Assembly: GCA_900539625.1 (NCBI GenBank)
Contig: UQCW01000002.1
Location: 74,455 to 138,454, forward strand
DNA: 64,000 nucleotides
Direction: 5' to 3'
Source of the DNA: an uncultured Prevotella sp.
GTDB lineage: Bacteria > Bacteroidota > Bacteroidia > Bacteroidales > Bacteroidaceae
Shown: one piece after another, positions 26,614 to 51,491 of the stretch
Layout: the number at the start of each line of letters is the position of its first letter
How positions within the stretch are numbered: position 1 is the first letter of the stretch
Position numbers and translations under genes: made by a program
Notes under the pieces: model-generated
What the model was told of the DNA's origin: nothing
Database searches by the model: none
What the model saw: only the letters and a program-made list of their open reading frames with translations

Positions 26614-26639
26614 TAATGGATCGACGACTCCACTACTGC

Positions 26640-27470: not shown

Positions 27471-27480
27471 ACTTTTTCTG

Positions 27481-28992: not shown

Positions 28993-29096
28993 TTATTCCA
29001 TTGCTCTTTTGTACAACATTGTATTTGTCCTAATCAACCTATAGCTTAGTTGCTTAGGAAATGGTCCAATAAGACTTATTCCTTATAATAGGAGTC

Positions 29097-29783: not shown

Positions 29784-29785
29784 TT

Positions 29786-32562: not shown

Positions 32563-32589
32563 TCTTTTCTCGTGTTTTTAGTGATACTT

Positions 32590-32814
32590 CTACGCATCCC
32601 CTCGCTCCAGTGCTTCTTCCAACAATTTGTCTTTATATGCTACAAACTGTCTCGCACTGTCCTCGCAGATGCACAATCCCTTGTTTAAGCAGTACTGTGT
32701 GTATTCTTCCTGCCATTCCTCTGAGTAATGGTTGACATAATCCAACCAACCATATTCTCCTTTCTGAACTTTTTCTACCAGTACTTCCTCTGGATAATAT
32801 TTGTTCTTTGCCAT
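32590..32814 (-). CDS. Small hypothetical protein
   Basis: 74 aa, acidic, Cys-containing. Confidence 0.35.
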   Translation of the reverse strand: MAKNKYYPEEVLVEKVQKGEYGWLDYVNHYSEEWQEEYTQYCLNKGLCICEDSARQFVAYKDKLLEEALERGDA

Positions 32815-32842
32815 TCTTCTTGTATTATTCTACTATTCTTTT

Positions 32843-33595
32843 TTAATGATGTCCGATTCTCGCAAGATGTCCCTCTCGCTTGCGTGACAACTCATTCCAC
32901 AACTCTTCCGTATAATCATCCTCACTGACATAGTCCAGATTACCGTCATCGTCCATCACCCAACAGCCATAACATCCGAATGTGTATTTATCCCATTCTC
33001 TTTTGGTCTGCTCTTGCCATTTCCGGTCATCACCTTGGCATAGTCTGATACCTGTGCTTTCATTCAGGTCAATGCCAACTGTAACAGGGTCTTCGTCCAT
33101 TACGAATGTAAGCGGTTCACCATGTTGGATGACTTTTACTTCTGCTGAACTCAGATGCATTTCTCCTGACAGAACTTGCAGGTTGCGACCAATGACTGGT
33201 GTGGGGGCATACATCACTTGGTTGGTCTCTGCATCCAACTGCACGAATGCTTTGCTCTGTTTTCCGTCCATCATCATGTCTGCAAGGATGGCTTTTCCTG
33301 ATAGCAACTGCTTCTGTTGTTCCTGGTCATATTGCGCCAAAGGTGCTTGGCTCAGTACTGGATAGAACATTACGTCTACCTTACCATCTTTCATGCGTAC
33401 AAAAGCGAAACGTGTTCGACTCTTGATAACATTCTCATTTTCATCCTCCACCTGTATGGGCAGTATAGGCGAACGTCTTCCCTGACCGATGTCTTCCAAT
33501 ACATGCATGGGCAGGTCTTCAATCATTTCTCGTGTCAATCCGTACTTGGCAAGTGTCTCATACGGCACTTCATGTTCTTCTATTCTTGCTTTCAT
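32843..33595 (-). CDS. Hypothetical protein
   Basis: 250-aa ORF, first gene of the leftward array that begins at the 33600-33850 divergent promoter region. Confidence 0.45.
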   Translation of the reverse strand: MKARIEEHEVPYETLAKYGLTREMIEDLPMHVLEDIGQGRRSPILPIQVEDENENVIKSRTRFAFVRMKDGKVDVMFYPVLSQAPLAQYDQEQQKQLLSGKAILADMMMDGKQSKAFVQLDAETNQVMYAPTPVIGRNLQVLSGEMHLSSAEVKVIQHGEPLTFVMDEDPVTVGIDLNESTGIRLCQGDDRKWQEQTKREWDKYTFGCYGCWVMDDDGNLDYVSEDDYTEELWNELSRKREGHLARIGHH

Positions 33596-33854
33596 ATTTG
33601 ATTGTATTTATTGATTTTCAACTGTGCAGTCTTTTGCCTTCAACACAAACATACGCCACACATCAGCAAAATTATATTGTAATGCGGCCACTGCAAGAAT
33701 ATCGCTCATTCTTGGAGCTTACATTTATGCTAATTTATAATTCAAGTATGATAATCAATGAATAATCATACTTGATTCTTATTTGATGTTATATTTTCGT
33801 TCCTTCAACCTTCTCTGTTTTGCCTTTCCTTTTCTTGATACTACTTTTGTCTAC

Positions 33855-34490
33855 ATGAAAAAGTTTTTATTGGTCTTCATAACTGCTGTCGGACTCTCTG
33901 CTTCTACAACAGTTCATGCACAGTTCTACTCCGTAGATAGTCATAATCGTCGTTACAAGGTTAAGGTCATAACACCACACACGAAAAAAGAGGCACCACT
34001 TTCTCGTGATACCTCTTCTATTAAGCTACCATCAGTCATTGACTCGACGGCTACCAATGATTTTACAACAAATAAGCCTGTTACAGCAAGCTCACAAATC
34101 TCGTTTCCTCTTCAAAATATCTATATTACGTCACCATATGGCTATCGCAATGATCCATTCACTGCCAAGAGAAAGTTTCATAACGGTATTGACCTGCGTG
34201 CCAACTATGAACCTTGTTATGCCATACTTGATGGTATTGTAGAACGCATCGGCAATGACAAACGTTCCGGCAATTTCATTACTCTTCGTCATGGTAACTA
34301 TACTATCAGCTACTGCCATCTCTCGCACATTCTCGTTCCCAAAGGTGCATCTATCCAATCGGGCACTCCAATCGCCATTACTGGTTCCTCTGGTCGCTCC
34401 ACCGCTCCCCATCTTCATTTGTCCATAAAATACAAGCGTAAGTCCGTAGATGCCAAGGTATTATTGGACTATATCGTCCAATCCAAATAG
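33855..34490 (+). CDS. M23-family metallopeptidase, secreted
   Basis: Signal peptide MKKFLLVFITAVGLSAS. M23 motifs HNGIDL (HxGxD) and APHLHLSI (HxH). ATG at 33855. Confidence 0.7.
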   Translation: MKKFLLVFITAVGLSASTTVHAQFYSVDSHNRRYKVKVITPHTKKEAPLSRDTSSIKLPSVIDSTATNDFTTNKPVTASSQISFPLQNIYITSPYGYRNDPFTAKRKFHNGIDLRANYEPCYAILDGIVERIGNDKRSGNFITLRHGNYTISYCHLSHILVPKGASIQSGTPIAITGSSGRSTAPHLHLSIKYKRKSVDAKVLLDYIVQSK

Positions 34491-36101: not shown

Positions 36102-38756
36102 CTACTTCTTCACTCCGTATATCTCATAATCCTTCTTTCGTCTTTCTACTATCGGAGGATTCTTCCCGTCGTAGTACATATCATACCATGTTGATGATTC
36201 TTTTGGCTTCATACTATCACTCAGCACAAAATGTTTGCCGTCCAATGACCGTTGCTGTATGTAATAATGGTGTAGTCTATATGCCGTCTTGACAAATACT
36301 TCTCTTGATCCCAAGAAGCAAATGTCGTCATACATCCTTATTTCTGCTTTTCTGTAAGTTTCACCATTGTTTCTTCCACGTCTCATATACACTCCACCTA
36401 TCTTCAGGAAGTTCATGAAACCGATGGTGACAAATTCCGGCTTACGGGTAAAGCATGTCATATTCTCCAAATATACCCAGTATTCCTTGCCTTGCTCCGT
36501 GAAATGAAGCAGGGCGTTGTCCTGAAGCTCTGCAAACTCATACGTCTGTTCTGGCTTTTCCATTGTTTTGTACAGTTCAGTGCGTACAAGGTATTTGCCT
36601 TCTCTGTTCTGCACTATTCTTATACCGTATGCCTGTGGGTATATCTTAGCATAACTGCCTAATGACTCCCATTTATCCAGCCAATTTCTTCGATAATATA
36701 CTTGGTAATTGTTCTTCGTGACGCAGGTGACTCTCAGATTGGCAGGTTCTTTATAGTCAGCTAACTGTGTTCTGCATCCGATGTAATCTATTTTTATTTC
36801 TGGTCTGAAAAACCTTATATATTGTTTCTTTTCCTCTTCGAACTGCTTGACTTCTTCTTCCCATGTGTTTCTCTTTTCTACTAATTCTTCAGCTGTCATA
36901 GGATGCAACATGGTATCCCAAGCCTTGCGCCAAGCCAAACCTCCTTGCTCGTCTTCCCAAATCGACAGGTCTTCTATTTTCTCCTTGAATATGTATAGTC
37001 TGTCTGGCTCTGATGGCTGCACAAAGAAATTGCGGAACCGCAGCCCTTCGTCTGTCCCATTATTCAACGCATTCCGCAATACAAAACTGTTCTCGTCCAT
37101 CCGACGTGTCTTTACTCTCGGATAGAGGCGCAACCCGTCTGTAGTGGAAAACTCCATAAAGCCATGTTTCTCGATTCTCGGACGCTTGAAGTATCGCACA
37201 CCATTACGCAAGTCCATCCAGGGGCGTTCTCTGTCTATCTTCCGTCGAGAATACAGTTTGGTTATTCCGTATGCTTTCAGTTCTACCTTATTATATTCAC
37301 AAGGCAGTATTTCCTTGCCGTCCTTATCCACAACACCAGACAGACCTTCCTTGTTGCTGACTATCTCGTAGCCGTATGCTTCCTCCAAGTCCATACGTTG
37401 CCCCTCATGTGTCATCACGGTGATTAACTCTGTTCGTGCGTCCGAAGTGATTCTCTCTTGTTCGTTGCAAATGGAATAGGCTATGTTATACAGCCCTTCC
37501 ACTTCCTCTGTCAGAATGCCTTTACCAGCGACACGTCCCTCAAACATGGCTTGCCAGTCTCTGTCATCTGACGGGAGTCCAAACAAACGGTACAGCCCGA
37601 CATTGTCCAATATCAAGCAATACTTCTTACCCTCAAACACACGCATGCCACGTCCTACTTGCTGCAGGTACTTTGCCAACGACAGTGTGGGTCTTGCCAA
37701 CTGGATAAACTCTACATCGGGACAGTCAAAACCTTCACCAAACAAATCTACATTAACCAACACTTGTATGTTATTTGTTTGCGCCAATGGAGTATCAGTA
37801 TTATCCGTACTATCAGCCTTATTGCTAACATCTGTATCTAACGGCTTAGTAAGGCTCAAAGAGGCATAGTTAGGCTTACTATCAATGCTTGTTTCCTTAA
37901 ACCTTTCAATGATCTCCTTTCTTTCTTCAAGCGGTGTCTTGCTGCTTATCGCCACTGCATTTATGCCATGCTGTCTGTATGCTTCTGCTATATGCTCCGC
38001 ATGGGCTATGTCTATGGCATAAGTGATGCCTTTCTTGTTAGCTGCATATCTCATCACCGTATCGCAAAGCCTCTCGATACTTGGCTGCACATTCATTTTC
38101 TCACTCATCTCTCTCAGCGAGAAGTCTCCGTCGGCACCTCTTTTCTTCAGCGAGTTCACCATGCGCCAGTCCTCGCTGTCCTCTCTGATGGACATATAGT
38201 CATACAGAGATAGCCACCCATCGGCAATAAACTTCTTTGCTGACCACGACTGCAGTAGCACGTCAAACAAATCGGTGAACCCTCGTTTGGTCAGTCGGCA
38301 GGGCGTGGCTGTCAGTCCCAGTTTCTTTGCCTCAGGATAAGCATCCATCACCTCCTTGTAGGTTTTCGCCACGGCATGATGCGCCTCGTCGATAACTATC
38401 AATGATGGAATTTCCTCCATTTCTTGATAGTGTCTCGACAGCCATTGTATCGACATTACTTTTATGCGAGAATCATCCAATAAAAGGGAAAGAGCAGTGC
38501 CAGAAGTAGAGCAAGGACTGCTTAGCATGGTTTCAAGCGTTTCTCTTATCTGTTCTACCAATTCACGCCGATGTACCACAATCCACACCCATGTATTTTT
38601 CCCTTTTAACTTTTCACTTTTCACTACTTCTGCAAGAAGTATCGTTTTACCCGTACCTGTCGGCATCTGCACCATCACGGACTGACACGACCGAAAAGCC
38701 GCCTCAATCCGTTCACTCATGTCTCTTTGATAGTCGTATAGCTGAATATCCTTCAT
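36102..38756 (-). CDS. SF2 DEAD/DEAH-box helicase (ResIII-like) with large C-terminal repeat-containing domain
   Basis: Motif I MPTGTGKT; motif II VIDEAHH; motif VI-like QQVGRGMR. The C-terminal ~450 aa carry repeated (K/R)DG…(L/I)…(Y/F)… units. ATG at 38756 is preferred; 38828 would overlap the upstream gene. Confidence 0.65.
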   Translation of the reverse strand: MKDIQLYDYQRDMSERIEAAFRSCQSVMVQMPTGTGKTILLAEVVKSEKLKGKNTWVWIVVHRRELVEQIRETLETMLSSPCSTSGTALSLLLDDSRIKVMSIQWLSRHYQEMEEIPSLIVIDEAHHAVAKTYKEVMDAYPEAKKLGLTATPCRLTKRGFTDLFDVLLQSWSAKKFIADGWLSLYDYMSIREDSEDWRMVNSLKKRGADGDFSLREMSEKMNVQPSIERLCDTVMRYAANKKGITYAIDIAHAEHIAEAYRQHGINAVAISSKTPLEERKEIIERFKETSIDSKPNYASLSLTKPLDTDVSNKADSTDNTDTPLAQTNNIQVLVNVDLFGEGFDCPDVEFIQLARPTLSLAKYLQQVGRGMRVFEGKKYCLILDNVGLYRLFGLPSDDRDWQAMFEGRVAGKGILTEEVEGLYNIAYSICNEQERITSDARTELITVMTHEGQRMDLEEAYGYEIVSNKEGLSGVVDKDGKEILPCEYNKVELKAYGITKLYSRRKIDRERPWMDLRNGVRYFKRPRIEKHGFMEFSTTDGLRLYPRVKTRRMDENSFVLRNALNNGTDEGLRFRNFFVQPSEPDRLYIFKEKIEDLSIWEDEQGGLAWRKAWDTMLHPMTAEELVEKRNTWEEEVKQFEEEKKQYIRFFRPEIKIDYIGCRTQLADYKEPANLRVTCVTKNNYQVYYRRNWLDKWESLGSYAKIYPQAYGIRIVQNREGKYLVRTELYKTMEKPEQTYEFAELQDNALLHFTEQGKEYWVYLENMTCFTRKPEFVTIGFMNFLKIGGVYMRRGRNNGETYRKAEIRMYDDICFLGSREVFVKTAYRLHHYYIQQRSLDGKHFVLSDSMKPKESSTWYDMYYDGKNPPIVERRKKDYEIYGVKK

Positions 38757-38757
38757 A

Positions 38758-39663
38758 TCAACTTCGTCTCGGTAACCACATCGAGGGTATTTCTTTACGA
38801 GTCTTCGAGTTGGCATTAGTAATGTCAATCAGTATCAGATACCACTGTTCCTTTCTTCGGTGCTCTCCAGATATATAGTAGACTTTATTGGGTTGGTCTC
38901 TAAGTATCATATACAGGTCCAAGAACTGGAATATTCTGTCATTTGCCACGCATTCCCGATGATGCATCGGTATGCCTGCCATGTCTCTGTTTTTATAGAA
39001 ATAATAGTTATAGCCAACTCTCAGCACGTCCATGAATCCCATATGCTCTACAATCGGACGCTCATCAAACTCCTGCATGGTGTACAGATTTACCCACGTG
39101 GTTTTGTCTTCTCCTGCAAACACTACTTCTGCGATATTGTCATCTGAGAGTTTTACGCTCTTTAATCCTTCCAGAATGATATGGTGGTCATTGTTGCTGA
39201 TGGCATACTCGTTGCGCATGAAATGTTCACAGACGTATGCGTCCTTACTGTTGTATTCCTTTCCTCTGTTCTTGTTGATAGCATAATAGGCGTATGTCAC
39301 AAGGCATTCTTCTCCATTGATGGTTTTATAGATGCTGAAGTTCTCCTGCTTGCGCTTCTTACCTGTAATATATTCTCTTTCATCGGTTGTCACTTCCTGC
39401 ATCGAACCTTGCGCATTATCCATATAGAGATATTGCTCCTTGGTGCCTACTGTCAGTGGTGACCATGGGTCTTTTCGTCCTACGTATTCAATGGCTTCAT
39501 TTTTATTGTTCAGCAGGTAGTACTTTGTTATGTCACCTTCTGTCTGACTGACTAACTGCCAGTTAAAACGCATATCATCGTAGGTCTTATATATCCCATG
39601 CATATTGTCACCAATACGGATATAATTCCCATCCTTTATATAGCCAAATTTTGTTTTTCGCAT
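38758..39663 (-). CDS. Hypothetical protein related to the helicase C-terminal repeat region (WG-repeat-like)
   Basis: Shares blocks with the helicase tail (…HMGFMDVLRVGYNYYFYKNRD vs …FMNFLKIGGVYMRRGRNNG). ATG at 39663. Confidence 0.45.
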   Translation of the reverse strand: MRKTKFGYIKDGNYIRIGDNMHGIYKTYDDMRFNWQLVSQTEGDITKYYLLNNKNEAIEYVGRKDPWSPLTVGTKEQYLYMDNAQGSMQEVTTDEREYITGKKRKQENFSIYKTINGEECLVTYAYYAINKNRGKEYNSKDAYVCEHFMRNEYAISNNDHHIILEGLKSVKLSDDNIAEVVFAGEDKTTWVNLYTMQEFDERPIVEHMGFMDVLRVGYNYYFYKNRDMAGIPMHHRECVANDRIFQFLDLYMILRDQPNKVYYISGEHRRKEQWYLILIDITNANSKTRKEIPSMWLPRRS

Positions 39664-39723
39664 AATGTAATTAGATAATCGAAATAATCTTAAATGGCAG
39701 TTCCACAAATAATTATCTACGCA

Positions 39724-39993
39724 TTAAATCAAATTCATGCGCTTTATCTCAGCAATGTTTTCCTTGATAAATTCACTGACTTTCTTGCCGTTGTTTGGGT
39801 ATATCACGGTTATTCGGATGCTGTCATCCAATGCCCCATGCACCTCGTCCACCAATTTATTGAATGGGCTATCTTTACATATATCCGGTAACCATAATAT
39901 CACGTCTCCACACTTCACGGTTACATGATAGTCCTTTATCAGATAGTGTCCCACCAATTCCCTTATTTTCTTTTCTATTTCAACACTATTCAT
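39724..39993 (-). CDS. Small hypothetical protein
   Basis: 89-aa ORF in the operon. Confidence 0.35.
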   Translation of the reverse strand: MNSVEIEKKIRELVGHYLIKDYHVTVKCGDVILWLPDICKDSPFNKLVDEVHGALDDSIRITVIYPNNGKKVSEFIKENIAEIKRMNLI

Positions 39994-40037
39994 AATTTTT
40001 CATAGATATATTTGATTCATCCGACACCTACTGCCCA

Positions 40038-41297
40038 CTAAAAGGGCAAAGCCCCTCTCGGCACCCCATAATCCGTACAACTCTCCGTTCCCTCAATCTC
40101 TTTCCACGCCTCATGCAAATAAGCATTCACATCCTCTGGCAGTTTTCCTTCTTTCGCCAACTTCTCAAACTCCTCTGTCAAGTCTCTTATGGCATATTCT
40201 GGACTGTACATATCATCAAAATACTCCCAGTGCCTGTCTATCACAAAGTGTCTGCACATGGATTTCGTCAGTTGTAGGAACATCAATGCTGCCGCCTGGT
40301 ATTCTCCAACAGCAAGCAACTTCTCGATATTCTTGTTCTCTTCCAACATCAGCTGCCAGATGCTATAACAGTCCCAATCCACATTTCTTCTGTTGAAGAT
40401 ACGCTGTTCATAGTCCTTGTTCAGTGGTATCAACGACTTGGCTTCTTTCTCTACCTCCAGCATCTGTCGCTCTTTCTCCCGTCGCCTACGCTCTGCTTCT
40501 CTTGCAGCGCGTTCTTCTTCGTCATTCATCTCTCGCTCGATCTTCACGGGCTCTCCCGTGAATTTCTTACTTGGTGCCAACATCTGTATATTGTTCTGCA
40601 CTCGTTTGAAATCATCAAACCGTGACAGATGCGTAAAGATATAGGTGAAGACCTCTTCTCGCTTCTCCTCGTTGTTCCATGCTGCCACACTGTCCACCAA
40701 TGCTGCAAAGCTCGCATATATCAGTTTGCCGATACGTAGTTTGTATTCATTTAGATAATCTCTAATGTCATCCCTATATATCAGCAACGGCAGATGTTCG
40801 CACAGTCCCATAGCAATGGCATACGCTGCGTCTGGTCGTCCTTTTGCCAACACTGCTGGTATCGACTTCTTCTCCCAACGCTCCAACAGTCGTAGCATAT
40901 ACATGAAGTCGTCTTTGTCATCAGGGAAGAAGGTCACCACTTGCTGAAAGTACTTGGCATATGCTTCCTCCAGGTCTATATACAATCCTTTGGGTATATA
41001 ATCTATCTTCGGACGTTCCATACAGCTTCTCCTTCTGCGCACCTCGGCTGCTTCATCCTGCTTTTTCTGATGGGCAAGTTGTTCTTCCTTGTCTCTACGA
41101 ACCGTCTCCAACTCTTCTTGAAACTCTGCTGCCTGCATGGTCTCCGCACATAGCAGCTTGTCTATCTTCTTTGACAGGTATCTGCTCCATGCCTGATAAT
41201 TACTTTCATCCACGCAATCGGGGCAGGATATACCACTCATGCTCCATGTATTTTCAGACAGGTAGAAAATCATGCTGTATCTTTTCTTTTTGCTCAT
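40038..41297 (-). CDS. Hypothetical protein with central coiled-coil/charged segment
   Basis: 419 aa with a central stretch of RREKERQMLEVEKEAK-type charged repeats. Confidence 0.45.
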   Translation of the reverse strand: MSKKKRYSMIFYLSENTWSMSGISCPDCVDESNYQAWSRYLSKKIDKLLCAETMQAAEFQEELETVRRDKEEQLAHQKKQDEAAEVRRRRSCMERPKIDYIPKGLYIDLEEAYAKYFQQVVTFFPDDKDDFMYMLRLLERWEKKSIPAVLAKGRPDAAYAIAMGLCEHLPLLIYRDDIRDYLNEYKLRIGKLIYASFAALVDSVAAWNNEEKREEVFTYIFTHLSRFDDFKRVQNNIQMLAPSKKFTGEPVKIEREMNDEEERAAREAERRRREKERQMLEVEKEAKSLIPLNKDYEQRIFNRRNVDWDCYSIWQLMLEENKNIEKLLAVGEYQAAALMFLQLTKSMCRHFVIDRHWEYFDDMYSPEYAIRDLTEEFEKLAKEGKLPEDVNAYLHEAWKEIEGTESCTDYGVPRGALPF

Positions 41298-41399
41298 ATT
41301 CTAAGTTTTTATAACGAATATGGGGTGATAGATTTTTCTTAGTGATTTGACATAAACCATAAAAACCGATTGTTGGCACAGTTTGCAAGTCCAAACGGT

Positions 41400-41610
41400 T
41401 TATCTCTGTTTATTGCCAGTTTGTTTTTCCGAGTGGCGTGTGCGCCACTACTGATGTGGGGCGGACTTTCCGTCGAGAGTTTACTCTCGTAAGGGAAGTG
41501 CGAACCACAGCAGTAAGCCGAAGGCTCGGAAAAACAGACTGGTGTTTTTACTCCGTTTTTGTTAAAGCCCACCCAGCAGCTGTTTTTGTTTAAACCCACT
41601 CAGCAGTAGG
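41400..41610. ncRNA. Candidate structured non-coding RNA (unknown family)
   Basis: 270-bp ORF-free gap. It has a 10-bp closing stem TTTTTCCGAG…CTCGGAAAAA (41424-41534) enclosing GTGGCG-TGTG-CGCCAC and CGAGAG-TTTA-CTCTCG hairpins. Duplicated CCCAC(C/T)CAGCAG motifs lie downstream. Confidence 0.25.
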
Positions 41611-41612
41611 TT

Positions 41613-42473
41613 TTATCGGTTTTTGTTTTTATCCATCTCCACCAAATAGTCGTACCCAAACACAAACGTGTCCCTCTTTGCATCCCCATACAGAAAATCC
41701 TCAAAACTGGTGAATGAAGACTGAAACATCTGCCCATACAGCATATCAATCGTGTTAATATGCCAAACCATAGCATTACTATATCGCTGCTCTGTACGCT
41801 TGTCTTTCATAACAAGTGTCAGAATATAACATACAGCCTCCAATAGAAACTCATAATACGAGCAATGACTCTCTCTGTCTGGCTCAAAGTAATCCACATC
41901 TTTACAGTGTAGCCTTGCAAGTCGTTCAAGAAGATAAAAAGCATTTCCTGCCGCCTCCTCATTCTTGCCTTCTTCATATTGCTTCATAAAGACTTCAAGC
42001 AATGGAATATATGCCATAGCTGCCTTTTTACCATCATTCCACGTGCTCGGTTCTATCCAAACCTTGTCAATTTCTTCACGCATGGTTGGAGTGAACCCTA
42101 TAAAACTATAGTTCTTCCATGACTTCACCGTGCGCATAGCTGCAGGATACTTGTTCGGATGATTATACTTAATGTCTTGCAGCATATGTCCAAGTGTCTC
42201 TGCCATACACTTGGCATGCATATACCGTTCTTCATCTGTCTCACTGGCAGCATAGTCGCAACAGTCTGTGTACCATTCTTCATGCGGAAGGTCACTCTCC
42301 ACTACATATTTACGGCTATCAATAGCTTCTGACCAATAGGTCAAGTAGCGGATTAGCACGCCATGAGGCAATGCCTTCAGCTCTTCTACGACTTTCTGTA
42401 TTTTCTTGTCTACAACCAAATCGTAATAATCGCCTTCGGCGTTGTAGACGAAATCGAATGGTTCGTTATACAT
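41613..42473 (-). CDS. Hypothetical protein (downstream partner of SIR2 gene)
   Basis: 286-aa ORF, 29 bp after the SIR2-like gene. Cys/His-containing, no known motif. Confidence 0.45.
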   Translation of the reverse strand: MYNEPFDFVYNAEGDYYDLVVDKKIQKVVEELKALPHGVLIRYLTYWSEAIDSRKYVVESDLPHEEWYTDCCDYAASETDEERYMHAKCMAETLGHMLQDIKYNHPNKYPAAMRTVKSWKNYSFIGFTPTMREEIDKVWIEPSTWNDGKKAAMAYIPLLEVFMKQYEEGKNEEAAGNAFYLLERLARLHCKDVDYFEPDRESHCSYYEFLLEAVCYILTLVMKDKRTEQRYSNAMVWHINTIDMLYGQMFQSSFTSFEDFLYGDAKRDTFVFGYDYLVEMDKNKNR

Positions 42474-42502
42474 ATTCCCTTATTGTTTATTACATTCATT
42501 AA

Positions 42503-44278
42503 TCAACCAGGAATCCTGTTCTCACTGTAATACTTTTGTGCATTATCATATAACCTTTTGTATTTTTGATAATCACTTCCAAACATCCCATGTTTCAAAG
42601 GTTTCCAATTGTCCTGTACTTTTTCTGCCTCTTCAAAAAATCGCCAATATGAATTTTTTCTTAATTCTTGATAACGATAATAAGATGCAGCTCTAACAAA
42701 ATCGCCTGTTGGGAAATACTCACGACCTTCCCAACAACATCCATGTGCAACATAACTCAACGACAAGATTTGTTCCCAGATGTAAAAATAGTTTTCGAAT
42801 TCACTTTCCGCATAAAAAACATTCTTAAAGAATGGCTTTAAAGTATCCTTAAAGAAAATACTCCTTGGATAGTAATAATTCTGCTGCAAAAGTGCATTCC
42901 ACAAGTCTTTGTCCCAGTGAGTCATTCCTACAATGGATAGGAATTTTTCTGGATGTACACTTACAAAATTAAATGGTGGCACCTCCAATGACAAAATATC
43001 TTCCAACTCTTTAAATCTTTCGTATTTTACACATGCAACACCTATTGCATAGAATAGTATTTCTACAGCTAATGCATGGATATAAGATGTATTTTGGGTT
43101 TCTGTTCGACCATTTTCTAATGGACGAAGACAAAGTTTTATTAGAATATCTTTGAATATGGCTATATGCTCGGATTTTCCCCATCTTGCTGCAAGAGTAA
43201 AAGCATCAATCAATGGAGCTACCGCTTCTTTATGTATTTCTGCATATTGCTGAAATGACGTAACGGATAACGTAAAGTTGTAATAGGCATACTCTTGTAT
43301 AGTGTTATAAGCCTTCCGACCTAATGTCTCTATAAGGTCTGCATATTCAATGGAGTAATTGTCTGATGATAGAAATTTCTTTATTTTAGCAATGAACAAG
43401 TCATGACTCATGGTACGTGACACATTGACTTTTTCTAATGCTTGTACTTGCTCCAATAGAGAGGTGAACATTTCATCTGCACCTAAAATCCTTAGAAGTT
43501 CGCCATCTCGTGATTCAGATAAGTTCTGTAGTTCTTCGCTAAATTTCCCAACTTCCGCAAAGAATGATGTGTAACGAGGTCGTTGGCTTTCTGTGATAAT
43601 CTCGATGAGTCCTTTATCCCATTTGGCAGACCATCCACAGGTCACCAGTCCAAAATCCGAGAAAATCCCATGAAGATGTCCTTTCAATATCTGTGGATAA
43701 TCATCAAGTTCTTTTGTTGTGTTCCTAAACTGACAATCAAGATAGTCACCATTTACTTTTATGATTGTTGGCTCTTTGCTATGGATAATCGGTGTCGCCG
43801 TGTTCCAATCACTTTCGTTCTTAATAACTTGTGGGTGTACTCCAATCTCCTCTAAAGCATTCTCTAACAGCCTATCAAAATTCGTTGTTACCACAACTTT
43901 TACATATCCTTCTCTAATCAGATTAGCAATCGCTCTATGTGCTTTTGTAGGCAATTTCCATCCCAACTCTTTTTCATCTGTTGTTGGTTCGAAGAAATTC
44001 TGCATTAGCCGCACACGCTCTGTCGGAGTTTTCACCATTTCTTCTAATAAATCAGAATAATTGGCTTGCTTTCCATATTGTTTAAGATACCATTGATGCC
44101 AATCGTTCGTTTCTGATACGTTTTGCGTCGCAGCTATTTGCTCTATAAGTCGCTCCTCGACCTCCCATCCTGTTGGTATATGCGCTTTTCTTGATATTCC
44201 AGAACCAAGCAATAGGGCATATGCTCCTTTATTGCTATATATGGACAATGCCAATGTTGTTAGTTTCTCAATTTTCAT
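42503..44278 (-). CDS. SIR2-like (defense-type sirtuin, SIR2_2) domain protein
   Basis: N-terminus ALLLGSGISRKAHIPTGWEV… and VVTTNFDRLLE match the GxG…TTN(Y/F)D signature of defense-associated SIR2 domains. The C-terminal ~300 aa are unknown. Confidence 0.65.
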   Translation of the reverse strand: MKIEKLTTLALSIYSNKGAYALLLGSGISRKAHIPTGWEVEERLIEQIAATQNVSETNDWHQWYLKQYGKQANYSDLLEEMVKTPTERVRLMQNFFEPTTDEKELGWKLPTKAHRAIANLIREGYVKVVVTTNFDRLLENALEEIGVHPQVIKNESDWNTATPIIHSKEPTIIKVNGDYLDCQFRNTTKELDDYPQILKGHLHGIFSDFGLVTCGWSAKWDKGLIEIITESQRPRYTSFFAEVGKFSEELQNLSESRDGELLRILGADEMFTSLLEQVQALEKVNVSRTMSHDLFIAKIKKFLSSDNYSIEYADLIETLGRKAYNTIQEYAYYNFTLSVTSFQQYAEIHKEAVAPLIDAFTLAARWGKSEHIAIFKDILIKLCLRPLENGRTETQNTSYIHALAVEILFYAIGVACVKYERFKELEDILSLEVPPFNFVSVHPEKFLSIVGMTHWDKDLWNALLQQNYYYPRSIFFKDTLKPFFKNVFYAESEFENYFYIWEQILSLSYVAHGCCWEGREYFPTGDFVRAASYYRYQELRKNSYWRFFEEAEKVQDNWKPLKHGMFGSDYQKYKRLYDNAQKYYSENRIPG

Positions 44279-46166
44279 AGTATGATTTCTTATGTATACT
44301 AGAATCTTTGATTACGTATGTCCCATTTTCGACTAGAATGTGATATACGACTCTTGAAGCAATTACATCAAGGTTTGAGAATAACTTTTCTAAAGTGCAT
44401 TTCTCAAATGGTGTCCCTTTTCGTAGCTCTCTCATATTTGTTTCAGAATGATGCAATGCGAAAGCCAATAAAACATCTCTAAGCTGATAATGAAAAGAAA
44501 ATGACATACCATCAGCATTATTTGTAAAATGAACATAATCGGCAAAATTATCAATATGTACATTAATAGCAAAAGAACACTTGAAATATTTTATTGTGTT
44601 AGTTGTGTCATTCGCTTCAATATTCATACTTACAGTTATCAGTTCTTTATCTTCAATTATTTCAAATGTAGGTCCTGTTATTTGCATCGTAATATCACGC
44701 AAGTCCCTGTCGTTTATTGAACCATAATAAAGCGATTCAAAATGAATCTTTTCCATTTTTACAACAGATAAATACTCAGGTTTAAACTCAGGCATTACAA
44801 CATCTTTGAGCTCTGATTTCTTAGTCAGACATTCGCTGAATATATCATCACTCTTTGGTTGTATCACTACATCATCCGCTATAGGATTCACAATCCAGTC
44901 TATCCATGGAGTTGACAAATCCCTGTTAGTTGTGTCTTGCCGCTGCCATTTGTCAAATCCCATCCATTGTTTTATTTTTTCCCAATGGTCGCTTAAGTCG
45001 CTATCATATTTGTATGCACCATTGTCAATGTCCACGAATGGAATGATAAAAACATAGGCTATATCGTAAATCCAAATAATGCCAGTACAATATGGTGCTT
45101 TTAAATCTTCTTGGCGGTTGTTTATGAAAACATCCAATACTGGTTGTTTGAATGGTATATAGTTTTTGTCGGCATCTGTTAGCACAACCAACCATATTGA
45201 GGGCAATGTGTCAGGTATAAAGTCTTTGGACTTAATCCACTTGATTGTGTTTTGAAAATGCGACAACTCCCTTGTAGGTAACATATCTATTACCATTTTG
45301 CACAAGGCTTTGTACATTTGCTCATTGACAATCGGTGATTTCAGTTCAAAATGATGTGCAAATGGCTTTTGGTCACTTACGCTCAGTGGTATTGCCTCCT
45401 TCATCAGATGCAGTATTGGATCTCCGTTTTTATCTGGGACAATGATGAAATCTTTTCCGACAACCTTGGCAGCCTTGGTTGTTCCTTTCCTTGGTATGCG
45501 AAAGATGGAACGACGGAAATCCATCATAACTCTAAACTGATCTTCTACTACAGCTAAGTCATGATTGCAAGTATCGCACTCTTCATAACAGAAAAGTAGC
45601 TTGTTGCCCAATGCATCCTGTATAGCATGGGCTACTTTCTTAAACGATACATCTGGTACTGACTTGCCGCAAAACCTACACACTCGCTTTTTTTCATCTG
45701 CTTCGCCAATCCATTCTTCTAATCCGTCAAAACCATATGAATGGTATTCGAATAGCAGATTCATGATGCAGAAATGCTCAAAGATATTGTTATGGAGCAT
45801 TACTGAGAACTTATTTGTCATATTTTCAATAGTTAAACAGGCTATAGCTGTTCTCCGTTCTGCTACAGAAGTTTTCTCTTCATTAAAGTAATAGAAATAC
45901 TCACCCATAGACAAGTTTCTTACAAATCCGAGCAGTTTCCTAATATGAAACCCTGTAGCATGATCATACTTTGCTTGTAGAACTTGCAAAGCATCAATCG
46001 TCTTGTCACTGACATTGATTCTTGCTCCTGTATGACGCAAAGACAAGACATCACAATGGTTCATAAACGTTTGTTCTATTTCAGTCGTCATCACGCTGTC
46101 ATTGTCTGAAAATAGTATTCTTTGTTTCTTAGACTTAGAATATAATAACATTCTGAGTTCCGTCAT
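44268..46166 (-). CDS. HNH-motif nuclease-like protein
   Basis: CRFCGK…AHAIQDALGNKLLFCYEECDTCNHD fits the zinc-knuckle + H…N…LL.C..CN.H HNH pattern. The N- and C-terminal regions are unknown. Overlaps the SIR2 gene by 11 bp. Confidence 0.5.
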   Translation of the reverse strand: MTELRMLLYSKSKKQRILFSDNDSVMTTEIEQTFMNHCDVLSLRHTGARINVSDKTIDALQVLQAKYDHATGFHIRKLLGFVRNLSMGEYFYYFNEEKTSVAERRTAIACLTIENMTNKFSVMLHNNIFEHFCIMNLLFEYHSYGFDGLEEWIGEADEKKRVCRFCGKSVPDVSFKKVAHAIQDALGNKLLFCYEECDTCNHDLAVVEDQFRVMMDFRRSIFRIPRKGTTKAAKVVGKDFIIVPDKNGDPILHLMKEAIPLSVSDQKPFAHHFELKSPIVNEQMYKALCKMVIDMLPTRELSHFQNTIKWIKSKDFIPDTLPSIWLVVLTDADKNYIPFKQPVLDVFINNRQEDLKAPYCTGIIWIYDIAYVFIIPFVDIDNGAYKYDSDLSDHWEKIKQWMGFDKWQRQDTTNRDLSTPWIDWIVNPIADDVVIQPKSDDIFSECLTKKSELKDVVMPEFKPEYLSVVKMEKIHFESLYYGSINDRDLRDITMQITGPTFEIIEDKELITVSMNIEANDTTNTIKYFKCSFAINVHIDNFADYVHFTNNADGMSFSFHYQLRDVLLAFALHHSETNMRELRKGTPFEKCTLEKLFSNLDVIASRVVYHILVENGTYVIKDSSIHKKSYYEN

Positions 46167-46275
46167 AAGCTATTAAATGATTTACATTAAATCTACCATT
46201 CTATAAACATTATTCATAATTAATGTTTGAAGGCTACATGTGTCTTTTTTGTAAAACCATAAGGTTCGATAGAAT

Positions 46276-47670
46276 CTATTTTGACACATATTTTAGCATA
46301 CATTCTATTATCGCCGCAAAGTCCGTTTCATTCTCTCTTCCTGATGATTCGAATAATCCTCCTATTTCCCCTTTTCCTGTTTTTTCATCAATAACAACAT
46401 CTTGGCGGTAATATATCCCATCTTGACCTTTGGAGAAAACGGAAACACCCAATCTTTGGCATTCTTCAAATGACAATAACATATAGGGAGCAAAATAAGT
46501 AAAGAAATCTTTCGGACTTTTCTGATAAACATTTCGAGCTATATTTTTCATACTGTCATCTGTCCATCCCAACCGTCTCATAACAGACAAAACTCTAAGC
46601 ATTACTGTACACAACACTATCGTATGCCCATTATAATCAACCGTTATACTGTCTTGTTTCTTTTCTTCTGTTATAATCACATGTACAACATCACGGATTG
46701 TTTTACTGTAAAAGTAGTCTTTTCCTATAAGGTCTCGTAATAGAGGAACAGGACATTCTGTAATAACGGCTAATTGTTCAAATATGTATTTTGTACGTTC
46801 CTCTTGAAGCGAGTAGTTGAATGGTATGCTTGACAGGAACTTGCCAATATATCCGCTGAAGTCTGTTTCTCTACCATAGAAATGTTTGAATATTTTTCTC
46901 ACATTTGAATAATCACATACAAGAACTATATTATCAAGATTGAATTTGTTACCAACAAGTGTGCAATCAGGCTTTACGAAACACTTGTAACAATAGTCAA
47001 TATGAGCAGAAAACACATTGAGTATTCTAAATAGATGTGCAGGATCTATCCTATCCAAATCTTCTACGACAAGAACAACTTCTTTATGGGTACGTTGCTT
47101 GTAATTTCCAATTGACCTCTTAATAATAGCTGTTATAATGTCATCCTCATAAATGGTTTTGTTGTCAACCTTACTAAGAAAGTCGTCTAAGAGGGCATTT
47201 TCGTCATAATTCACTTTGAACTTTTCAAATTTGACTTTCATGTCCTTAAACAGTTTCAATGACTTCATACAACTCATTATTAACGGCTTGTATTCATTGG
47301 GAACCGCAATGGCAGACAAGTAAGAAAGCAAATCTGAAAGTAAAGACTTACCATTGTTTTGGAGATAAAACCATAAGGCTATATCGTTAGGAACAACGAC
47401 TTGGTCACTTATCATACTATTCAACATCAACTGAAACAATATGTCCCGTTTGATTAGACTGAATATGTCCTCATTTGATGCGACTTGATAGTTGACTGGG
47501 TATATGGTAAGAAACATGAAGTGTTCACTGACAAAATCTGTCTTTTTATATTTGTCCAAGAAATAGGATTTTCCGTCACCAAACTTTGATGAAAGTATCG
47601 TTCTTGGATTTACCTTCATATGCTCAAAGAACCCTTTTATTGCACTGTCTATTGGTATGACAAAATCCAT
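46276..47670 (-). CDS. KAP-family-like P-loop NTPase
   Basis: Walker A KFGDGKSYFL and the KAP-characteristic Walker B VLVVEDLDRIDP. Confidence 0.55.
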   Translation of the reverse strand: MDFVIPIDSAIKGFFEHMKVNPRTILSSKFGDGKSYFLDKYKKTDFVSEHFMFLTIYPVNYQVASNEDIFSLIKRDILFQLMLNSMISDQVVVPNDIALWFYLQNNGKSLLSDLLSYLSAIAVPNEYKPLIMSCMKSLKLFKDMKVKFEKFKVNYDENALLDDFLSKVDNKTIYEDDIITAIIKRSIGNYKQRTHKEVVLVVEDLDRIDPAHLFRILNVFSAHIDYCYKCFVKPDCTLVGNKFNLDNIVLVCDYSNVRKIFKHFYGRETDFSGYIGKFLSSIPFNYSLQEERTKYIFEQLAVITECPVPLLRDLIGKDYFYSKTIRDVVHVIITEEKKQDSITVDYNGHTIVLCTVMLRVLSVMRRLGWTDDSMKNIARNVYQKSPKDFFTYFAPYMLLSFEECQRLGVSVFSKGQDGIYYRQDVVIDEKTGKGEIGGLFESSGRENETDFAAIIECMLKYVSK

Positions 47671-47901
47671 TTACTCCTCTATTTTTGATTTCACAAATGA
47701 ATAAGACTCAGCAACCTCTTCTCGTTGCCAATAACTTGAAATATCAGAAAGACTATTTCCGCAACTGCTGCTCGATATTCTCTGATTTAAGAAGTTCACA
47801 TAAACACGCCCATTGTCATTTTCCACAAAGGCAATGGAATCAGTATTTATGTATACCGGATTTCCGTTATGTTTGATGTGTAATTCTATAAAGTGTGCCA
47901 T
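47671..47901 (-). CDS. Small hypothetical protein (76 aa)
   Basis: Its start is 17 bp after the stop of the 1034-aa gene, and its stop abuts the KAP-like gene start. Confidence 0.35.
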   Translation of the reverse strand: MAHFIELHIKHNGNPVYINTDSIAFVENDNGRVYVNFLNQRISSSSCGNSLSDISSYWQREEVAESYSFVKSKIEE

Positions 47902-47917
47902 ATAACAATGCTTCTTA

Positions 47918-50900
47918 TCATTTACCTAAATTGCGCTTCGCAATAGCCACTTCTGGTGTGTCCAACAATTTCATTCCTGTAATAGAACCATATTCAGCTA
48001 ACTTGTCATGCGACAATTCGTGATTATAGACATAGTTACGAACGCGAGCATTTATTAATCTGAGAATTACAGGATTATTCTTATAGGTTTTCACCATTGC
48101 TCTCAAATCATTGGCTCTCATAGTTCCATAATATGTATTAATAGTGAAAGAGATGATGGCAGCAGCTGGAGTACCGATTTTTTCAGCTACCTTTTCATAG
48201 ATTTCTGGCATTCCTGTTCCGCCAGTTCCTACCGATAAAGATAATCTTGCAAATGAAAACAGGCAGAATTTCATCAAAACCATTTGAAGCAAACGATTTA
48301 GACGTTCTTGGATTTTCTTTTCATTTGTTCCCTTTATCAAGTTCGGATTCTTTGTTATCTCCTCAACAAAAGATTTCCTGTCATCTTCGATTATCTTGGT
48401 AATAAAAGATAATGAGCGGAATGTCGCGTAATATGCATCTTCAATCAACCCCATCAATTCGTCCTTTCGGAGCGTGTCACGTTGATTCTTTACGATTTGC
48501 CCCATTATTTGTGTCACAAATAGTGAGTTCCTGAAATCTATCAGATCTTGATTTTGCTCATATTCTTCATTGTCTGGCAGTGCTTCAGCAGAACTTGCCT
48601 TTCGTATCGCCATGTCTTCCTTATCATGGGCGGCCAAACGTTTGTATCTTTCCTTCCTGTAATCTACACCCTCTCTCAAGACATCTTCTTTAAAGGAATT
48701 AACCAAGTCAGCCAAACGACTATATAATTTATCATCTGTATTAAGAGTAATAGGGTCCAATTTCTCGAAAGGCAACCAACTGATAAATTTTATTTCTGTA
48801 AGGAGTGTGTCACTATTGTCCAAATAAGCAAGGAATAATAATATGTTGGCATTGTTTTCTTTATGCAGTGAATTGCAGAGTTCTTTTACTTCCCTTTCAC
48901 CTTCTTCCGTGTTAATGATTCGAGACAACTTTAATGCAGTTAGATAGAAAAACAAATATTTATATGAGAATTGGTAAACTTTATCCTCTTGTTCCTTAAT
49001 AATAGCGGATTCTTTCAACTTGGCTAAGAATGTTTCTTTAGTCGCAACAACATTTCTTTCTTTAGAGTATTCTGCATAAAAGTCATTATAGTTTACAGCA
49101 TCTTTTATGTCACATTCTGCAAACGAACTTACTTTCTTCTTGTACATTTCGTAAGACAATTCCGACAAGAACATACTATATCCATCTAATTTACCTTGTT
49201 GAACCCCAGATCTAATAAGAGATGCAAACAATAGACTTTGATATAATGCAGCGTATGAAGTTGGCGAGACATCAAAAGTATTAACACCTGTGTCGATATT
49301 TTGCAACAGCGTAAGCAAGAATATTGGATTTGACGGCAACAACTGTTTGCCTAATATGTTTGCGACTTGATCATAAGCTGTTTTTACTGCTTCTGCCAAC
49401 TTGTTATTGTCAACGGTATATATATCAGAGCCTAACATTATCCATCTTTCTATCAACAGATTACGCTTTACATATCCAAGAGAATGTACAGAATAATATA
49501 TCACATCCATATTGTCAGCAGTAGACAAGAATCCCCTAATATCTATATTCTCTGATGTAGTAATTATAACCTTGTCATAAACTTTCAATAATGATGAGAT
49601 AAGTTCCTTCATTCCCGATTTATTGAGAGAAGACTTATCCATATTATCTATAAAGACAATTCGTTTTGACCTTTCAATGGTATAATACTCTTGAAATTTC
49701 TTTTTGGATTTGTCATATTGATTGTCATACGCTCTGTTCAATAAATGCTTGATGTTGACCTTCGTGATATCTTTTCCATGAAGCAATATTGGATAGATTG
49801 AGCGATGATAGCATTGAGATATGAGCATCTTTAGCAATGCTGTTTTCCCACACTGGCTTTCTCCTTCCAAGATTATCACTTTCGTCGCTTCGTTATACGA
49901 AAAAATTTCCTTTGAGTCTATATATGTATAAACCCTGTCATCATCTACGTTTCCATTCAATGGTTCCAAATCAGGATATACATATATATCATCCAATAAC
50001 AGAGGGTCTTTACGTGGATGCTTAATTGGAGCATCCAAGCTATGAAGATATGTATAAAATTGCTCTGTAAAGTCAAAAGAATGACCATGATAAGTAATCG
50101 GAACATTCTTTTCTGCAATAGGTAGGCAAACATCTTTCTTTGCGTCAATAGAAATTGTATATAATACAGCATTTGTTAAATCCGTATCATCAAATACAAG
50201 AACAGAAAAGGATTGTTCTTCACCCTGTTGCAAAGAATCATTCTCTAAATATAAAATTGCAGCTCTATTGTCCAAATCCGAAATTTGCTTTCCACGATGT
50301 TGATGTTCGTGACCACACATCAATATTTGCGATTGCTTTTGAATGTGCTCACTAAATAAATGGTTGTTATTTTTCGTTCCGCGTGTTGCTAACCAACCTG
50401 TCTTGTGGTGAAAAACGGATATGACAATATCATTTCTTCCATTGTCATCATTGTACGTTATGAAATTTGCTTCTGGAACAATTAGGCTTTGTGGTTGTTC
50501 ATTTATGGTGGACAATAAAGCTGTATTATAGCAATGAAATATCAGAGAACTGTTATTGTTGATTTTTATTTGTTTCTCGTAAGAAATTCGATTCAGGTGT
50601 TCTTCTTCACTTAATTCAGCATAAAATTTCCAAAACTCATATTGAGGTTTCAGGGCCTCGCTTTCATATTCATTACGTTTAAAAGCTCCATTATCCAAGA
50701 CATCTTTTAGTACGAAGTCACGAAAAGGCACATCCATTCCAAAATCCAAGTCGTGATTACCTGGAACAAAAACGTACTCCCAAGAGTCAAACTTTCTCTC
50801 CTTTTCAATTTCATTCTTGAAATCTTGAAACATTTTCTTCGCAAATTGGTAGTTTGCGACATTCCCTTTATCAACGATGTCTCCAGTGACAACGACTGCC

Positions 50901-51022
50901 ACTTTTGAACACTCATTTAGAATAGAAGCAGTGGCACGTGCAAGATTTCTTGATTTTTCCACAATATAGTCTGTTCCCGATGTTATGTGAAGATCAGACA
51001 TTTGAATAACTGCTAATTTCAT
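47918..51022 (-). CDS. Calcineurin-like metallophosphoesterase – STAND-type P-loop NTPase fusion protein
   Basis: The N-terminal 290 aa carry the full metallophosphoesterase motif set: SDLHI, VVTGDIVDKG, GNHD, FHHK, CGHEHQH. These are followed by Walker A GESQCGKTALL and Walker B RIVFIDNMD, then ~550 aa of helical C-terminal region. Confidence 0.65.
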   Translation of the reverse strand: MKLAVIQMSDLHITSGTDYIVEKSRNLARATASILNECSKVAVVVTGDIVDKGNVANYQFAKKMFQDFKNEIEKERKFDSWEYVFVPGNHDLDFGMDVPFRDFVLKDVLDNGAFKRNEYESEALKPQYEFWKFYAELSEEEHLNRISYEKQIKINNNSSLIFHCYNTALLSTINEQPQSLIVPEANFITYNDDNGRNDIVISVFHHKTGWLATRGTKNNNHLFSEHIQKQSQILMCGHEHQHRGKQISDLDNRAAILYLENDSLQQGEEQSFSVLVFDDTDLTNAVLYTISIDAKKDVCLPIAEKNVPITYHGHSFDFTEQFYTYLHSLDAPIKHPRKDPLLLDDIYVYPDLEPLNGNVDDDRVYTYIDSKEIFSYNEATKVIILEGESQCGKTALLKMLISQCYHRSIYPILLHGKDITKVNIKHLLNRAYDNQYDKSKKKFQEYYTIERSKRIVFIDNMDKSSLNKSGMKELISSLLKVYDKVIITTSENIDIRGFLSTADNMDVIYYSVHSLGYVKRNLLIERWIMLGSDIYTVDNNKLAEAVKTAYDQVANILGKQLLPSNPIFLLTLLQNIDTGVNTFDVSPTSYAALYQSLLFASLIRSGVQQGKLDGYSMFLSELSYEMYKKKVSSFAECDIKDAVNYNDFYAEYSKERNVVATKETFLAKLKESAIIKEQEDKVYQFSYKYLFFYLTALKLSRIINTEEGEREVKELCNSLHKENNANILLFLAYLDNSDTLLTEIKFISWLPFEKLDPITLNTDDKLYSRLADLVNSFKEDVLREGVDYRKERYKRLAAHDKEDMAIRKASSAEALPDNEEYEQNQDLIDFRNSLFVTQIMGQIVKNQRDTLRKDELMGLIEDAYYATFRSLSFITKIIEDDRKSFVEEITKNPNLIKGTNEKKIQERLNRLLQMVLMKFCLFSFARLSLSVGTGGTGMPEIYEKVAEKIGTPAAAIISFTINTYYGTMRANDLRAMVKTYKNNPVILRLINARVRNYVYNHELSHDKLAEYGSITGMKLLDTPEVAIAKRNLGK

Positions 51023-51044
51023 ACGTTACAATTATTTCTTGATA

Positions 51045-51491
51045 CTATCCTTTATACGCCCCATCCTTTGCTTCAAATATCACACTCGGCTCTATCACTT
51101 CCACCGTGTGCCATGCCCCTTTTGGTATCTGACATCCATACTTTGCCTCCGCTGGGCAAAGATGAATGCGTTGCACCTCACGATACTCTACTTTCCGTAT
51201 TACATCCTGCGTATCTATACCCATAGGCAGGGCTTCAGATGCAGCATTCTCGTATGTCACTACCTCCTCATATATAATTTCATCCATTTTTCCACACAAG
51301 CAAACAACTGTTTCTGTCGTGTTCTCATGCCTGTGGATAGGCACAACCGTACCAGGAAGTAATGCATTTAAGATACGCTGACTATTATCAGCCGAAGATG
51401 TACGCAAATCAAAACTCTGACGTAATCTTGGGTTTATTGTGGCTTGCTCAAAGAGCTTACCTAAAAAGTCTTTATCAAATTCCATAGTCAT
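51045..51491 (-). CDS. wbuC: WbuC-family cupin-fold protein
   Basis: 148 aa with a cupin His cluster (…VVPIHRHENTTE…); terminal gene of the polysaccharide locus. Confidence 0.55.
   Translation of the reverse strand: MTMEFDKDFLGKLFEQATINPRLRQSFDLRTSSADNSQRILNALLPGTVVPIHRHENTTETVVCLCGKMDEIIYEEVVTYENAASEALPMGIDTQDVIRKVEYREVQRIHLCPAEAKYGCQIPKGAWHTVEVIEPSVIFEAKDGAYKG

Follow-up and report, generated by a model that had tools for sequence, protein, structure and literature searches.

A PDC-S65-type SIR2 protein as a single-gene anti-phage candidate in a Bacteroidales defence hotspot

The DNA considered here is a 64,000-nucleotide stretch (hereafter the window) of an uncultured Prevotella sp. (contig UQCW01000002.1 of GenBank assembly GCA_900539625.1, positions 74,455 to 138,454 of the forward strand), in which the gene of a 591-amino-acid (aa) SIR2 protein, SIR2-591, lies between that of a 632-aa HNH protein (HNH-632) and that of an uncharacterised 286-aa protein. 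The reading preferred, with somewhat better than even confidence, is that SIR2-591 is an anti-phage candidate complete in a single polypeptide, belonging to the PADLOC family PDC-S65 and carried in a defence hotspot of a Bacteroidales genome from the human gut, where HNH-632 forms a separate cassette and the 286-aa gene belongs to the flank. An earlier note, written by a model from the letters of this DNA, had put forward a defence-type SIR2 protein that was co-translated with the HNH gene, accompanied by a 286-aa partner, and either a new SIR2 system or an effector recruited to a larger multi-gene system. Its physical description was accurate, the open reading frames (ORFs) and an 11-bp overlap having been read directly and the GSGIS and TTNFD motifs located.

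PADLOC includes a guilt-by-embedding set of phage defence candidates (PDC), reportedly that of Payne et al. Judged by its profile match, SIR2-591 is an ordinary member of one already catalogued candidate family, PDC-S65: the PADLOC hidden Markov model (HMM; PDLC05061) aligned residues 1-587 with positions 12-589 of the 592 in the model (E 2e-184, 613 bits), and Pfam returned a match to SIR2_2. Length, two-domain architecture and single-gene behaviour are the same in PDC-S65 and SIR2-591, with no structural difference, whereas the clade to which the window belongs is additionally paired with an HNH gene, unlike the family at large. The PDC-S systems were described as single-gene 'phage defence candidates', predicted by guilt by embedding (10.1101/2024.01.29.577857). 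The supposition of a new SIR2 system therefore falls away, the family being a PADLOC candidate already; the label 'defence-type' is borne out by the end-to-end PDC-S65 match, the lack of a zinc ribbon, the sporadic spread and the position in a defence hotspot, and neither a classical deacetylase sirtuin with a zinc ribbon nor a housekeeping distribution was found.

The PDC-S65-type family comprises more than 2000 clusters (90% identity) with a constant length of about 590 aa. Full-length relatives of 27-55% identity were located in 77 species-representative genomes, the closest at species level being 55% identical, and their hosts range from Bacteroidota and Acidobacteriota through Proteobacteria to archaea, with Bdellovibrio, Gallionella, Methanothrix, Methanoculleus, and Haloferax among them. 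Full-length PDC-S65-type SIR2 genes of 40-45% identity were also present on nine viral contigs from IMG/VR (L173-L181, six of them from one sample; the loci gathered for comparison bear L numbers throughout), which suggests that these copies are prophage-borne. Such patchy, horizontal-gene-transfer-like spread is the pattern expected of a mobile defence gene rather than a housekeeping gene. When the neighbours of 82 SIR2 loci were clustered, each neighbour family occurred in six loci at most; type I and type III restriction-modification (R-M) genes were among these neighbours, and neither an HNH-632 homologue nor the 286-aa gene was found in any of the 77 species-level loci (0/77 for each). 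Because no neighbour is conserved family-wide, SIR2-591 behaves as a single-gene unit.

An AlphaFold2 model of the protein (mean predicted local distance difference test score 85.9) comprises a Rossmann SIR2 domain (residues 1-286) and an all-helical domain (residues 292-586). The motifs of the former are G25-x-G27-x-S29, T131-T-N133-F-D135, H166, and K174-V-N176-G-D-Y; GSGIS (residues 25-29) and TTNFD (131-135) are invariant across 117 homologues, and the invariant residues of the nicotinamide adenine dinucleotide (NAD) pocket extend to G25, G27, S29, T131-D135, and K174-Y179. The top Foldseek matches of the SIR2 domain were DSR2 (E ~2e-8) and the SIR2-APAZ protein of SPARSA, and the closest solved protein by sequence was the SIR2-APAZ subunit of a short prokaryotic Argonaute (pAgo) system (PDB profile E 6e-8), over the SIR2 domain only. 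With just two Cys residues in the domain (C182 and C214), a Cys4 zinc ribbon is absent, such that the Rossmann fold, the GxGxS and TTN(F/Y)D motifs and the lack of a zinc ribbon are all as in the defence SIR2 NADases of the ThsA, DSR, KomC, SIR2-APAZ, SIR2-HerA, and Avs5 kinds.

The C-terminal half, of about 300 aa, matched no Pfam, NCBIfam or PADLOC family of its own and no PDB relative. The same module was nonetheless recovered alone, in proteins of about 290-310 aa, and C-terminal to a range of other domains: among the representatives listed, it followed SIR2 in about 24, TIR/SEFIR in 7-8, a caspase-type Peptidase_C14 domain in 10, a protein kinase in two and a ParA/CbiA-type ATPase in two, in addition to unassigned N-terminal domains. 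In defence proteins, a C-terminal module that stays constant while the toxic or enzymatic domain N-terminal to it is exchanged usually marks a sensor or regulator. Since its N-terminal effector partners are swapped in this manner, the module of SIR2-591 is, by analogy, probably a sensor or regulator. The unnamed module being common to SIR2, TIR, caspase, kinase, and ParA-type effectors, a single trigger-sensing mechanism may serve many of them.

Relatives in which the module is fused to SEFIR matched the PADLOC bSEFIR model (E ~1e-57), and share the module with SIR2-591 by phmmer, at E-values down to 5e-44. The bSEFIR protein was validated experimentally by Millman et al. (2022; 10.1101/2022.05.11.491447), and proteins with a bSEFIR-type N-terminal domain carry the C-terminal module of SIR2-591; on these sequence matches, the SIR2-591 family is an effector-swapped sibling of those module-bearing proteins. 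The idea that the module corresponds to the C-terminal part of the validated Bacillus bSEFIR protein was discarded, C-terminal-only fragments (including those from the SEFIR fusions) having no bSEFIR match even at E 10, and for this reason the link to bSEFIR comes through the SEFIR domain alone. A literature search with 'bSEFIR' as the term returned no mention. The earlier note had recognised no motif in either the C-terminal half or the 286-aa protein; that is correct as regards Pfam, NCBIfam, and PADLOC. On account of its similar size and helical make-up, the 286-aa protein had also been considered as a free-standing copy of the module, and this was rejected on an hhalign probability of 0.3%.

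The domain-swapping pattern is the ground on which a mechanism of a sensor releasing or assembling an effector is proposed. The C-terminal module would sense an infection cue and hold the SIR2 domain inactive until then; activation would probably proceed by oligomerisation, as in ThsA, DSR2 or KomC, and the active SIR2 domain would then consume NAD+, resulting in growth arrest and abortive infection.

Several considerations weigh against SIR2-591 as a self-sufficient defence unit of this kind. PDC-S65 was mentioned nowhere in the literature search, and the family stands as a prediction; the sensor role is drawn from the domain partners only; and within the hotspot the HNH and SIR2 genes are always paired, which leaves a dependence on HNH possible in this clade. 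In addition, the canonical catalytic His position is occupied by Asn176 (KVNGDY, not KxHGD), so that the His of the defence NADases is lacking. To our knowledge, all characterised sirtuins and defence SIR2 NADases carry the catalytic His within a strand-x-H-G motif, and SirTM is the sole sirtuin class known without it. In HMMER alignments, N176 stood opposite H186 of GsSir2 and residue 146 of KomC, and the engineered H146N chain of KomC outscored the wild type against SIR2-591 (E 0.032 versus 0.16); the catalytic His of DSR2 (His171), ThsA (H152), KomC (H146), and GsSir2 (His186) thus contrasts with Asn in SIR2-591. Asn176 is invariant in the 117 close homologues, and 22 of 24 distant representatives with SIR2 and the C-terminal module, which were gathered through the C-terminal domain and hence form a motif-unbiased sample, likewise have Asn, the remaining two retaining KLHGDY. 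Alteration of KomC H146 to Ala abolished both NADase activity and defence (PMC13454610), and it is with this residue that N176 aligns. A whole widespread family of SIR2 defence candidates lacks the catalytic His needed by every characterised defence sirtuin.

The GSGIS…TTNFD signature, which the earlier note took as that of an NAD+-depleting effector, is indeed present and invariant; the depletion itself calls for a caveat, the absence of the catalytic His having been overlooked. From the sequence, NAD+ depletion by SIR2-591 is plausible yet not assured. With Asn176 in the place normally taken by the catalytic His, non-canonical chemistry may operate, possibly involving another base, such as H166, or ADP-ribosyl transfer. 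H166 is almost invariant, including in both KLHGDY members. A 'His migration', whereby H166 would substitute for the lost His, was examined and set aside for want of covariation, both KLHGDY members retaining the H166 equivalent.

On these grounds, the alternative that the SIR2 domain is no NAD+-depleting hydrolase, and serves either as a SirTM-like ADP-ribosyltransferase of a phage or host target or as a non-catalytic binder of NAD or an NAD derivative, deserves consideration, albeit it is held to be unlikely. In its favour are the alignment of N176 with the GsSir2 and KomC His residues, the prevalence of Asn in close and distant homologues, the loss of KomC activity upon H146A substitution, and the precedent of SirTM, which has an amide side chain (Gln137) at the catalytic His position, as Asn176 is in SIR2-591, and is a protein ADP-ribosyltransferase (PMC4518038). 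Against it, the two KLHGDY members indicate that the site is homologous and that either residue is tolerated; N133 is intact, as is the remainder of the pocket, and H166 could act as the base; moreover, SIR2 replaces TIR/SEFIR, typical NADases, among the proteins sharing the module. Strict conservation of the other NAD-pocket residues indicates that the SIR2 domain is under selection. A broader proposal can be advanced only tentatively, namely that PDC-S65 represents a natural His-to-Asn clade of defence sirtuins which are not simple NAD+ hydrolysers (acting by ADP-ribosylation of a target or through another base), and which would be governed by a previously undescribed helical sensor module of about 300 aa that bacteria and archaea would combine with at least five kinds of effector domain.

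The single-polypeptide candidate bears a resemblance to several known systems without belonging to any of them. DSR1 and DSR2 combine an N-terminal SIR2 effector with a C-terminal helical sensor in one polypeptide, an arrangement that SIR2-591 would share. However, the NCBIfam Dsr1 model reached 19 bits, its cut-off being 1400, and aligned only with residues 23-145, and no PADLOC Dsr model matched; DSR2 is about 1000 aa long, and its C-terminal part, which is HEAT-like, binds the tail tube of the phage, whereas the C-terminal domain of SIR2-591 measures about 300 aa and is unrelated. SIR2-APAZ of SPARSA (PDB 8jkz, 8in8) has the closest SIR2 domain by sequence (PADLOC Aga_SIR2, E 3e-23) and a similar total length (~585 aa), but the matches stop at residue ~279 (18-279), the C-terminal half of SIR2-591 is not APAZ, and no Argonaute gene lies nearby. 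ThsA and KomC are switched on by small-molecule signals from partner genes (ThsB, and KomA/KomB, respectively), with SLOG or partner subunits, and no such partners accompany SIR2-591. The ThsA HMM matched over residues 110-183 only (E 2e-7), with no TIR gene in the locus to indicate Thoeris, and no HerA, as in SIR2-HerA (Nezha), was found in the 36-52 kb region of the window. The comparison with DSR1/DSR2, ThsA, and HerA partners, to which the earlier note had pointed, hence assigned SIR2-591 to none of these systems.

It is decidedly improbable, though conceivable, that HNH-632 and SIR2-591 form a translationally coupled two-gene system in which one protein senses or cuts invading DNA and the other depletes NAD+. 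The 11-bp overlap between the HNH-632 stop and the SIR2-591 start, read directly as ATGAAAATTGA, is shared by the window with L001, L093, L111, L119, and L126, and the two genes were always found together inside the hotspot (in the window, L001, L005, L007, L093, L111, L119, L126, and L147), whatever the other cargo. Against such a system, L005, L007, and L008 have a 30-bp gap instead of the overlap; HNH-632 occurs neither in the Hoylesella locus nor in any of the 77 species-level SIR2 loci, such that no SIR2 relative of 55% identity or less was ever accompanied by an HNH-632 homologue; and the PADLOC model treats the SIR2 family as single-gene. Conversely, HNH-632 homologues of 39-61% identity were without SIR2 in five of five loci examined, being placed beside an MmeI-type R-M gene in L183 and, in L092, in a capsule-end hotspot with YaaC, AAA_15, and PIN genes. 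SIR2 genes of 91-99% identity adjoin HNH alleles of 60% to 97% identity, and since near-identical SIR2 genes sit beside diverged HNH alleles, the two do not have one shared history.

HNH-632 itself has a weak HNH_5 match over residues 163-206, followed by some 420 uncharacterised C-terminal residues; it matched nothing in PADLOC or NCBIfam, and its family numbers 186 homologue clusters. It is best read as an independent single-gene cassette that has become linked to SIR2 in one lineage, and it may represent an uncatalogued single-gene defence candidate. The two genes are very probably co-transcribed in the window clade. Of the claim that their overlap implies co-translation, the overlap is real, whereas a conserved system is not, given the 30-bp gaps and the occurrence of each gene without the other.

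A two-gene system of SIR2-591 and the 286-aa protein is highly improbable. The two adjoin on the same strand with a 29-bp spacer, and the pair recurs in L001, L005, L007, L093, L111, L119, L126, and L147. When metagenomes were scanned for loci around the 286-aa gene, 80 human-gut loci were recovered, 65 of them with at least 1.9 kb upstream, and SIR2 adjoined the 286-aa gene in only 5 of these 65 (8 of 80 with partial contigs included); elsewhere the 286-aa gene follows at least 23 other cargos, or directly follows the WbuC gene at empty sites. None of the 77 distant SIR2 loci contains it; L006 has a 286-aa homologue of 71% identity in a locus with neither SIR2 nor HNH; and in L005 (11806-12663) a premature TAG interrupts the 286-aa gene beside an intact SIR2 gene. 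The 286-aa gene is thus hotspot flank and is refuted as the SIR2 partner envisaged in the earlier note.

The protein matched no Pfam, NCBIfam or PADLOC family, is unrelated to the 419-aa protein of the same flank, and belongs to a small, shallow family of 67 clusters, nearly all above 60% identity; at 90% identity, the 286-aa cluster counts 3749 members, the SIR2 cluster 427, and the HNH cluster 204.

That SIR2-591 is a classical sirtuin, i.e., a housekeeping NAD-dependent protein deacylase, can be virtually dismissed, as the CobB and Sir2 matches are weak, confined to residues 94-141 and below threshold (NCBIfam CobB 21 bits versus 320; Pfam SIR2 16.8 bits versus 24), the two Cys residues allow no Cys4 zinc ribbon, the catalytic His is missing, and both the defence context and the patchy, transfer-like spread speak against it.

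The hotspot that carries the PDC-S65 candidate extends, in human-gut metagenome contigs (L093-L172), from the WbuC cupin gene that closes a capsule locus to a block of the 286-aa, 86-aa, 419-aa, 89-aa, and helicase genes, and corresponds to positions 41613-51491 of the window (Table 1). In 43 of 80 loci the WbuC gene preceded the variable region, and the distance from this gene to the 286-aa gene was 308-351 bp in five 'empty' loci and elsewhere reached 8.5 kb. The variable segment took at least 23 distinct arrangements of co-oriented genes, amounting to 53 protein clusters, and its cargo included homologues of QatA (in a conserved five-gene, QatABCD-like cassette), of reverse-transcriptase-based systems, of PifA, and of PDC-M01B. 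The WbuC|286 site should accordingly be handy for the mining of new Bacteroidales defence genes.

Two further cargo genes lie upstream of HNH-632 in the window. The first (47918-51022, minus strand) encodes a 1034-aa protein with metallophosphatase and STAND/NACHT domains, which its profile matches mark as a DS-8 homologue (NCBIfam DS8_antiphage, E 3e-224, with 746.9 bits where the cut-off is 790; PADLOC PDC-S60, E 4e-47). DS-8 is a validated single-protein metallophosphatase-NACHT anti-phage system (PMC13092281). The second (46276-47670, minus strand) encodes a 464-aa protein without family assignment, with only marginal matches to PDC-S20 (E ~0.007). Both are missing from L001, L005, L007, and L147, where the HNH and SIR2 genes directly follow the WbuC gene, and in L126 the 464-aa gene lies between a 455-aa cargo gene and the HNH-SIR2 pair, without a DS-8 homologue; the 464-aa gene is an independent cassette. 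Because the DS-8 homologue and the 464-aa gene are absent from several HNH-SIR2 loci, what had appeared as a larger multi-gene system resolves into a row of independent cassettes, and the notion of an effector recruited to it is abandoned, the 1034-aa protein being the homologue of a single-protein system and HNH-632 occurring without SIR2 in every locus examined outside the clade. The borders of the gene systems are thereby redrawn, with the DS-8-like, 464-aa, HNH-632, and PDC-S65 genes as independent cassettes in one hotspot between the capsule locus and the helicase block.

Table 1. Features of the SIR2-591 locus and its surroundings in the window.
Feature	Position	Strand	Assignment
591-aa protein, SIR2 plus helical domain (SIR2-591)	42503..44278	minus	PADLOC PDC-S65 member, by profile match
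C-terminal helical module of ~300 aa (residues ~287-591 of SIR2-591)	42503..43420	minus	probable sensor/regulator
HNH-632, 632-aa HNH_5-containing protein	44268..46166	minus	Pfam HNH_5, E 2.7e-6
286-aa alpha-helical-repeat protein with N-terminal beta-hairpin	41613..42473	minus	first gene of the constant right flank of the hotspot
Remainder of the constant flank: 86-aa, 419-aa, and 89-aa ORFs, 316-aa helicase A remnant, 908-aa helicase B	36102..41599	minus	Pfam ResIII/SWI2_SNF2/Helicase_C
Other hotspot cargo: 1034-aa DS-8 homologue and 464-aa protein	46276..51022	minus	NCBIfam DS8_antiphage, PADLOC PDC-S60
WbuC-family cupin (DUF6016), last gene of a capsule/O-antigen-type locus	51045..51491	minus	NCBIfam cupin_WbuC, E 1e-29; left border of the hotspot

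Downstream of the 286-aa gene, most of the 80 loci have ORFs of 86, 419, and 89 aa and then one or two ResIII/SNF2-type helicases. In the window, the 316-aa ORF (with a TTG start) corresponds to the C-terminal part of the 759-aa helicase of L001 (helicase A), whose N-terminal part in turn corresponds to that of the 908-aa protein (helicase B); the 316-aa ORF is what remains of helicase A after deletion of its N-terminal part. The flank helicases are tandem ResIII/SNF2-type paralogues with a common core of about 430 aa and differing C-terminal domains (window 36102-39708, minus strand; L001 10853-13132; L006 10023-15382; L007 10654-13330; L169-L171). Helicase A of L007 is split into 525 and 245 aa, while L169-L171 have three helicases in tandem, with a second 286-like paralogue of 44% identity in L169 and L170. 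Downstream of the helicase block, positions 20473-34490 of the window hold genes of conjugative or mobilisable elements, including those for a DUF4099 protein, a Toprim-like protein, a 798-aa fusion of ArdC-N, zincin (MPTase-PolyVal), and MutS_I, and M23 peptidase/glucosaminidase proteins. The constant flank may perhaps be the end of an integrated element. Scans of the window for Rfam families and transfer RNAs (tRNAs) found nothing, so that there is no attachment-site tRNA to account for the hotspot; promoter and terminator scans of 36-52 kb gave nothing over the shuffled expectation, with a sigma-70 consensus that is ill-suited to Bacteroidota.

The 286-aa gene is often damaged, and many truncated clusters are found in its family. 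In L009 (583-1140), 49 aa from the N-terminal part of the 286-aa protein are fused to 140 aa from the C-terminal part of the 419-aa protein, and a 55-codon in-frame deletion reduces the product to 231 aa in L007 (8001-8696) and L008. Lastly, within a SIR2 sub-clade of 53-55% identity, a gene of 259 aa follows SIR2 after a 3-bp spacer in six loci (L003, L004, L012, L015, L016, and L022). It is unrelated to the 286-aa gene by BLASTP and is possibly a clade-specific accessory gene; in L003 (9773-11485) and L004 (Hoylesella nanceiensis) it is itself followed by a 300-aa gene, L003 lying within a conjugative transposon.

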